Source of the DNA: Escherichia coli
GTDB lineage: Bacteria > Pseudomonadota > Gammaproteobacteria > Enterobacterales > Enterobacteriaceae
Direction: 5' to 3' (one strand)
DNA: 64,000 bases
Assembly (NCBI RefSeq): GCF_003334405.1
Contig: NZ_QOWM01000002.1
Shown here piece by piece: positions 11,889 to 13,500 of the stretch; positions within the stretch are counted from its first letter, which is position 1, and the number at the start of each line of letters is the position of its first letter. The position numbers and the translations under genes were made by a program. Below the pieces are notes generated by a model, which was given only the letters and a program-made list of their open reading frames with translations, ran no database searches and was not told the origin of the DNA.

Positions 11889-13142
11889 ATGTCAGGATCC
11901 AACACTGCAATCAGCCGTCGTCGTTTACTGCAAGGCGCGGGTGCCATGTGGCTATTGAGCGTAAGTCAGGTCAGTCTGGCTGCGGTCAGCCAGGTCGTGG
12001 CGGTGCGCGTCTGGCCTGCGTCCAGCTACACCCGCGTGACGGTGGAATCAAATCGTCAGCTGAAATATAAGCAGTTCGCGTTGAGTAACCCTGAACGCGT
12101 GGTGGTGGATATCGAAGATGTAAACCTGAACTCGGTACTCAAGGGGATGGCGGCACAAATTCGTGCAGACGACCCGTTCATCAAGTCGGCGCGCGTCGGG
12201 CAATTTGACCCGCAAACCGTACGGATGGTTTTTGAATTAAAGCAAAACGTAAAACCGCAGCTGTTTGCCCTTGCGCCGGTCGCCGGGTTTAAAGAGCGTC
12301 TGGTGATGGACCTCTATCCGGCCAATGCACAGGATATGCAGGACCCGCTGCTGGCGCTGCTGGAGGATTACAACAAAGGCGACCTCGAAAAGCAGGTGCC
12401 GCCAGCGCAAAGTGGTCCACAACCGGGTAAAGCAGGGCGCGATCGTCCGATTGTCATTATGCTTGACCCTGGCCACGGTGGCGAAGACTCCGGTGCGGTG
12501 GGGAAATACAAAACGCGCGAAAAAGATGTGGTATTGCAAATAGCTCGCCGTTTGCGCTCTCTGATCGAGAAAGAGGGCAATATGAAGGTGTACATGACGC
12601 GCAATGAAGACATCTTCATTCCATTGCAAGTGCGCGTAGCAAAAGCCCAGAAACAGCGTGCTGACCTGTTTGTCTCTATCCATGCCGACGCCTTTACCAG
12701 TCGTCAGCCGAGCGGTTCCTCTGTGTTTGCGCTCTCAACCAAAGGTGCAACCAGTACTGCGGCAAAATATCTGGCACAAACCCAGAACGCCTCGGACTTG
12801 ATTGGTGGCGTGAGCAAAAGCGGTGACCGCTATGTCGACCACACCATGTTCGATATGGTACAGTCGCTGACCATTGCCGACAGCCTGAAGTTTGGTAAAG
12901 CGGTACTGAATAAGCTCGGTAAAATCAACAAGCTGCATAAAAATCAAGTTGAACAGGCCGGGTTTGCCGTACTAAAGGCACCAGATATTCCCTCCATTCT
13001 GGTCGAAACGGCGTTTATCAGTAACGTTGAGGAAGAGCGTAAACTGAAAACGGCGACTTTCCAGCAGGAAGTTGCGGAGTCTATTCTTGCGGGGATTAAA
13101 GCGTATTTTGCCGATGGGGCGACGCTGGCGAGAAGGGGATGA
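11889..13142 (+). CDS. amiC: N-acetylmuramoyl-L-alanine amidase AmiC (Tat-exported)
   Basis: ORF 11799..13142. Start placed at the internal ATG giving 417 aa, beginning [19 protein letters not shown] (twin-arginine signal). Amidase_3 catalytic domain. Confidence 0.9.
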
Positions 13143-13145
13143 TAA

Positions 13146-13170
13146 AAAGGCGCTGAATGGCGCTTTTTTA
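13146..13170 (+). terminator. Putative intrinsic terminator after amiC
   Basis: Short GC stem (gcgc / gcgc with A-U extension) followed by tttttt at 13164..13169. The stem is weak. Confidence 0.4.
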
Positions 13171-13215
13171 TGGGAGACCAGAAACAAAAAAACACCCGTT
13201 AGGGTGTTCAATAAT

Positions 13216-13292
13216 TGGTTGCGGGGGCCGGATTTGAACCGACGACCTTCGGGTTATGAGCCCGACGAGCTACCAGGCTGCTCCACCCCGCG
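13216..13292 (-). tRNA. metZ: Initiator tRNA-fMet (CAU anticodon), single copy
   Basis: The plus strand is the exact reverse complement of the E. coli tRNA-fMet sequence (CGCGGGGTGGAGCAGCC...CCCCCGCAACCA), 77 nt. A hairpin plus T-tract lies 3' of it on the minus strand at about 13183..13210. Confidence 0.93.
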
Positions 13293-13500
13293 TCCGTGGA
13301 TGCGCACTATACTCCGCTCGCGTTTTCATGCAACCTTTTTTTTACCCCGATCACGGATTTGGCATGATTTTGAACAAAAACAAATCACTAAAGCCTATTT
13401 TTTGTGCAAAATTTGCGTCAGGGAGAGGCTGCTCATTTCATTAAACGCGGCGGTTTGTTATCTTCGTTGCGCCTTATTTTTTAACCTGAAGAAGAGAACA

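Follow-up and report, generated by a model that had tools for sequence, protein, structure and literature searches.

How many genes for initiator tRNA does this Escherichia coli strain carry between amiC and mltA, and if there is only one, what became of the others? In K-12 the operon at this site, metZWV, consists of three tandem copies (PMC3017606). The original prediction was that the stretch of DNA analysed here holds a single copy where a triplet is expected. This stretch, which we call the window, comprises the final 64,000 nt of QOWM01000002.1, a draft whole-genome shotgun contig of 538,955 bp (GCA_003334405.1). We found no paper describing the assembly QOWM01 / GCA_003334405.1.

Is the gene at this site an initiator tRNA gene, and is it alone? 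ARAGORN reports one tRNA in the whole 64-kb window, a tRNA-Met(CAT) on the minus strand with its anticodon, cat, at position 35. The Rfam tRNA model RF00005 matches the same interval (table 1) from end to end with 61.4 bits. The gene (CGCGGGGTGGAGCAGCCTGGTAGCTCGTCGGGCTCATAACCCGAAGGTCGTCGGTTCAAATCCGGCCCCCGCAACCA) has the CAU anticodon and the standard cloverleaf, and the hallmarks of a bacterial initiator are present: C1 stands opposite A72, leaving the first acceptor pair non-canonical in the Rfam alignment, and the anticodon stem is closed by three G–C pairs (GGGCUCAUAACCC). The role of these 3GC pairs in the initiator tRNA has been described (PMC3017606). CCA is encoded in the gene. Position 46 is G, as in the tRNAfMet1 type; the metY isoacceptor of K-12 has A46, a one-base difference from the metZWV type (bioRxiv 10.64898/2026.04.16.719103). 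Each of the three metZWV copies of K-12 has the same sequence as the tRNA of the window. By its sequence, then, we assign the window gene to tRNAfMet1 (G46) and not to the K-12 metY isoacceptor (A46). The single tRNA-fMet gene that had been proposed between amiC and mltA is indeed what the window contains.

What signals surround this gene? The operon is read from the metZ promoter towards amiC. The promoter, which we placed by its identity to K-12 and by the published sequence of a metZWV knockout primer, consists of a −35 hexamer TTGCAT (13333..13328), a 16-nt spacer and a −10 hexamer TATAGT (13311..13306), with an A8 tract just upstream. A simple promoter scan flagged no promoter, because the −35 hexamer matches at only three of six positions. 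The promoter-down mutations D4 and D27 have been mapped to the −10 region of metZWV (PMC3017606). On the other side the operon terminator, an 8-bp stem followed by a T-run, starts 7 nt past the 3′ end of the tRNA (stem in the scan 13209..13190, minus strand). The hairpin behind amiC is a putative terminator on both strands; the terminator scan did not flag it. Judged from these elements, the remaining gene is a metZ/metV hybrid, with the promoter and leader of metZ on one side and the trailer of metV on the other. Since promoter, leader and terminator are all kept, the single-copy allele should be functional and expressible. The annotation of both neighbouring genes was taken from strain BR1220, in which 25 kb is 100% identical to positions 1–25000 of the window. 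Further on, in the mltA–tcdA intergenic region, the small RNA ES036 (CssrF; Rfam RF02751) matches at 14720..14762 (plus strand) with 46.5 bits, the gathering score being 37.6.

Table 1. Features of the amiC–mltA region in the window, with the evidence for each.
Feature	Position	Strand	Evidence
amiC (N-acetylmuramoyl-L-alanine amidase), left neighbour	11889..13142	+	BR1220 annotation of identical sequence; ORF 11799..13142
Hairpin behind the amiC stop codon: A-tract, GCGC stem, T-tract (putative terminator)	13145..13170	both strands terminator-like	read by eye, AAAAAGGCGCTGAATGGCGCTTTTTT
Intrinsic terminator of the tRNA operon (metV-side trailer in K-12)	13180..13209	−	terminator scan, K-12 identity
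Single tRNA-fMet1 gene with CCA	13216..13292	−	ARAGORN, Rfam RF00005, K-12 identity, sole match in window
GC-rich discriminator and short 5′ leader, −10 to mature 5′ end	13293..13305	−	sense GCGCATCCACGGA; identical to K-12
metZWV promoter core	13306..13333	−	K-12 identity, published knockout primer
mltA (murein transglycosylase A), right neighbour	13501..14598	+	BR1220 annotation of identical sequence

How, exactly, does this allele differ from the K-12 triplet? In the K-12 strain CJ236 three tandem tRNA-Met genes lie at this site with a period of 110 bp, made up of 77-nt genes and 33-nt spacers. The triplet that the original prediction gave for K-12 is thus confirmed, and the literature agrees (PMC3017606). 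The inter-copy spacer of K-12 reads CACCGTACTGCTTT(T)ACTTCATCAAATTT, and its k-mers include CACCGTACTGCTTTACTTCATCAAATTTTAAT and CACCGTACTGCTTTTACTTCATCAAATTTGAT; the only differences between the two spacers are a single T within a T-run and their ends, TTTGAT in one and TTTTAAT in the other, and the exact identity shared among the K-12 copies extends over 81–94 nt. We aligned the one-copy window with the two-copy strain 99-3165 and with three-copy K-12 (alignment A1). The flanks of all three are 100% identical, and all that separates the window from the K-12 allele is the absence of exactly 220 bp, that is, two 110-bp units. In site, tRNA, promoter region, leader and terminator the window agrees with K-12; what has gone is two of the three units together with both spacers, and the window, with its one copy, lacks the three tandem copies at 110-bp period. 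The tRNA is bordered directly by flank sequence, ...GGGTGTTCAATAATTGG on the amiC side and ...CCGCGTCCGTGGATGCGC on the mltA side. As had been claimed, these flanks hold no partial copies: we found no direct repeat within 13000..13600, no second tRNA match at up to three mismatches in the whole window, and nowhere in the window a match to the spacer between the K-12 copies. An exchange between the outer two of the three identical genes would give exactly the window allele, be it inside a cell or within an assembly graph. A real contraction and an assembler collapse leave identical sequence, and the sequence alone cannot choose between them.

Is the single-copy state peculiar to this strain? 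We surveyed the amiC–mltA locus in 5,426 complete RefSeq E. coli genomes. Copy classes were defined by E-value cut-offs that only a full-length, one-piece match can pass; without such strict cut-offs joined adjacent pieces admit two-copy loci, and 213 genomes appear to be single-copy. One copy was found in 109 genomes (2.0%), two copies in 116 (2.1%) and four or more in 67 (1.2%), leaving three copies, by subtraction, in about 5,134 (about 94.6%). The one-copy and two-copy classes sum to 225, against 226 from a separate search. In the class of four or more, 26 of the 67 members match in two registers and therefore have at least five copies. A query built on the inter-copy junction also caught partial matches, and its place counts serve as a rough guide only. 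Downward deviation at metZWV thus affects about 4% of complete E. coli genomes.

The three-copy genomes sampled include K-12 derivatives, O157:H7 and ST131. Among K-12 derivatives alone we found one copy (J53, ME8067, C3026, MG1655p, MC1061, OV2), two (MT102, C600 and one DH5α assembly), three (CJ236, MC4100 and another DH5α assembly) and four (XL10-Gold); DH5α, in other words, has two copies in one assembly and three in another. The genomes with four or more copies include strain HS as well as the K-12-derived XL10-Gold, and the state of five or more is common to a set of isolates from humans with genomes of about 4.8 Mb (MRSN34xxxx strains and others). In the 109 single-copy assemblies, for example BR1220, J53, MC1061 and O104:H4 2011C-3493, the 157-nt junction running from flank through tRNA to flank is identical to that of the window or nearly so. 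These are nevertheless other strains, and none has the deletion between ygcN and ygcE that marks the window.

That deletion bears on the lineage of the source strain. Over roughly its first 56.5 kb the window shows 99.9–99.98% identity to K-12, and beyond that point 98.7–98.9%. Relative to strain VG48B2 it lacks 9,488 bp, corresponding to 9,485 bp in K-12 coordinates (2892804–2902288); the deletion begins inside ygcN, runs through ygcOPQRSUW–yqcE and ends within ygcE, with its junction at 58263..58265. It creates an in-frame ygcN′–′ygcE fusion ORF of 408 aa (57183..58409, minus strand). No genome among the 5,426 complete ones of E. coli has the junction. The exact fusion protein recurs on nine contigs, among them QOWM01000002.1 and contigs of the Logan runs ERR4578754 and ERR1948962, and the deletion is therefore a real lineage marker. 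A small CRISPR array between queE and ygcE (about 56390..56545) is some 122 bp, or two repeat–spacer units, shorter than in K-12; its length is about that of VG48B2, so we regard it as a natural array-length variant. We found no candidate ORF for IS elements or other repeats in the window. Positions 47183..64000 match the terminal part of QOWM01000002.1 without a difference, and position 64000 is the contig end, just past cysH and a gene of the hok/gef family, where K-12 continues with the type I-E cas3; that the contig stops here suggests that the source strain has a repeat or mobile element at this point.

How are the single-copy assemblies distributed? They are scattered, and clustered by sequencing project. 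When the 88 named ones were grouped by strain names and accession runs, about 57 fell into project groups; a cruder grouping by name prefix gave 47 of 88. The largest groups are the GF chicken-meat strains (ten), WP-ESBL (eight), TUM (six) and a run of accessions CP0672xx–CP0673xx (six). The chromosomes of the ten GF chicken-meat strains range from 4.72 to 5.28 Mb.

Do other tandem tRNA arrays behave in the same way? We compared two controls, glyVXY and leuQPV, in each of which, as at metZWV, three tandem tRNA genes can be reduced to one by exchange between repeats. The architecture of glyVXY, which lies at orn–queG, matches that of the fMet array: three identical 76-nt genes, a period of 111–112 bp and exact repeats of 78–93 nt. 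The two-copy state is comparably frequent at the two loci (116 genomes for fMet, 81 for glyVXY), and the single-copy state is about seven times commoner at fMet (109 against 15). The two contractions also coincide. Nine of the 75 named assemblies with a contracted glyVXY are fMet single-copy too, where 1.5 would be expected (hypergeometric P = 1.6e-5), and 4 of the 15 glyVXY single-copy assemblies fall in the fMet single-copy set (P = 1.8e-4). HS30-1, GF8 and 22AR0747 are single-copy at leuQPV as well; MC1061 and OV2, K-12 laboratory strains from one submitter, have a single gene at both fMet and glyVXY. It is unlikely that real, independent deletions would strike unrelated arrays of one and the same genome, so for this subset a pipeline effect is the simpler reading. 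On the evidence of batch clustering and co-contraction, many of the single-copy calls are technical.

The leuQPV array lies outside the window, at yjjZ–rsmC. Its middle gene in CJ236 differs by 1 nt. Of the 5,426 complete genomes, 425 have only one gene there, and among 60 sampled rows of those 425 nearly all are O157:H7 or close relatives. This distribution suggests a tandem tRNA array contraction that has become fixed in a clade, and since the single state extends across the O157:H7 clade, such contractions must be inherited in nature. The single fMet state, by contrast, is sporadic across lineages.

Which process, then, removed the two units from the window allele? We lean slightly towards a collapse by the assembler of three near-perfect 110-bp tandem repeats, in which case the strain itself probably has the normal triplet. 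The exchange between the outer two of the three identical 77-nt genes would have taken place in the computer; it would have removed two 110-bp units (220 bp) and left a single tRNA body with the promoter and leader of metZ before it and the trailer and terminator of metV behind it. We infer a collapse in this particular assembly because the contig is of draft origin, because there is a strong batch signal among complete assemblies, and because the 110-bp unit is near-perfect. It must be set against this that a repeat shorter than one read is usually resolved by the short-read assemblers of today. The excess of single-copy fMet loci over glyVXY also points to a locus-specific biology, unless the fMet array is simply the easier one to collapse. 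Further, contraction of the metZWV array is experimentally documented: when a genome-reduced K-12 was subjected to adaptive evolution, homologous recombination cost three of the five lines one or two of their three tandem fMet genes (PMC10249474).

This laboratory precedent speaks for the reading to which we give somewhat less than an even chance, that two units were deleted in vivo when the outer two of the identical genes underwent homologous exchange; unequal sister-chromatid recombination, single-strand annealing or replication slippage are candidate routes. The evolved lines resemble the window in having lost one or two of three copies and in being left with a clean array. They differ in that their losses were seen to arise in culture, whereas the state of the window is known only from a natural K-12-like strain in draft assembly, and may be technical. 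(Kapoor et al. 2011, considered as a further precedent, was set aside; it describes promoter point mutations and not copy loss.) Copy number at this locus varies in both directions, with one copy in 109 genomes, two in 116 and at least four in 67, and K-12 derivatives span one to four. Arrays of four or more copies cannot be made by collapse, and some occur in apparent clonal groups; real unequal exchange therefore operates here. A true contraction also accords with the roughly sevenfold excess over glyVXY despite the same architecture, with the lineage-fixed contraction of leuQPV in O157:H7, and with the retention of promoter, leader and terminator in an allele that would be functional. There is a back-up in metY, and cells survive without any of the operon (PMC3017606, PMC11480407). 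What tells against a deletion in the cell is that single-copy calls cluster by batch and that unrelated arrays are contracted together in the same assemblies, as well as the draft origin of the contig; further, the ygcN–ygcE junction, at 0 of 5,426 complete genomes, leaves no same-lineage comparison. An extended form of this reading, which we consider unlikely, holds that the contraction is real and that metZWV is an unusually labile dosage locus, at which frequent gains and losses of 110-bp units tune the supply of initiator tRNA. Growth rate and start-codon fidelity would then be traded against survival under poor conditions, and both the excess over glyVXY and the segregation of contractions and expansions, from one to at least five copies, would be explained. 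Finally, the lineage might never have had the triplet, the three copies having arisen elsewhere by duplication. Nothing specific recommends this, beyond the principle that tandem arrays can grow from single genes, and we consider it most improbable: three copies are present in about 94.6% of the 5,426 complete genomes, the flanks are 100% identical to three-copy K-12, and the surrounding 56 kb is 99.9–99.98% identical. The single-copy allele is nested among three-copy, K-12-like relatives, which disfavours an ancestral single gene.

The original prediction had allowed for both recombination between the repeats and collapse of the assembly, and public data bear it out, as each occurs at metZWV (PMC10249474 for the former, the co-contracted assemblies for the latter). 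Its proposed test, that threefold read depth over the gene would indicate a collapsed repeat, needs correction. The 77-nt tRNA body also attracts reads of the unlinked metY, so that a true single copy corresponds to about 2× the depth of the flanks and a collapsed triplet to about 4×, not to 1× and 3×.

What does a single gene at this site mean? A one-gene metZWV is a known, recurrent and ordinary copy-number state that either a cell or an assembler can produce; the locus has already been documented, as have the variation in its copy number and the mechanism of recombination, and neither outcome alters the existing knowledge of metZWV. If the state is technical, assembly-based counts of tRNA genes underestimate tandem arrays, even in assemblies labelled complete; part of the downward deviation of about 4% is in any case batch-linked. 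If it is real, one gene of the metZWV type together with the unlinked metY would give the strain about half the usual dosage of initiator tRNA genes. Levels of tRNAfMet track gene copy number, and loss of the whole operon is viable, with slow growth, cold sensitivity and initiation of translation by non-initiator tRNAs (PMC3017606, PMC8248024, PMC11480407). In a strain with two of four genes milder effects would be expected, among them a mild growth cost and a slightly relaxed fidelity of start-site selection.
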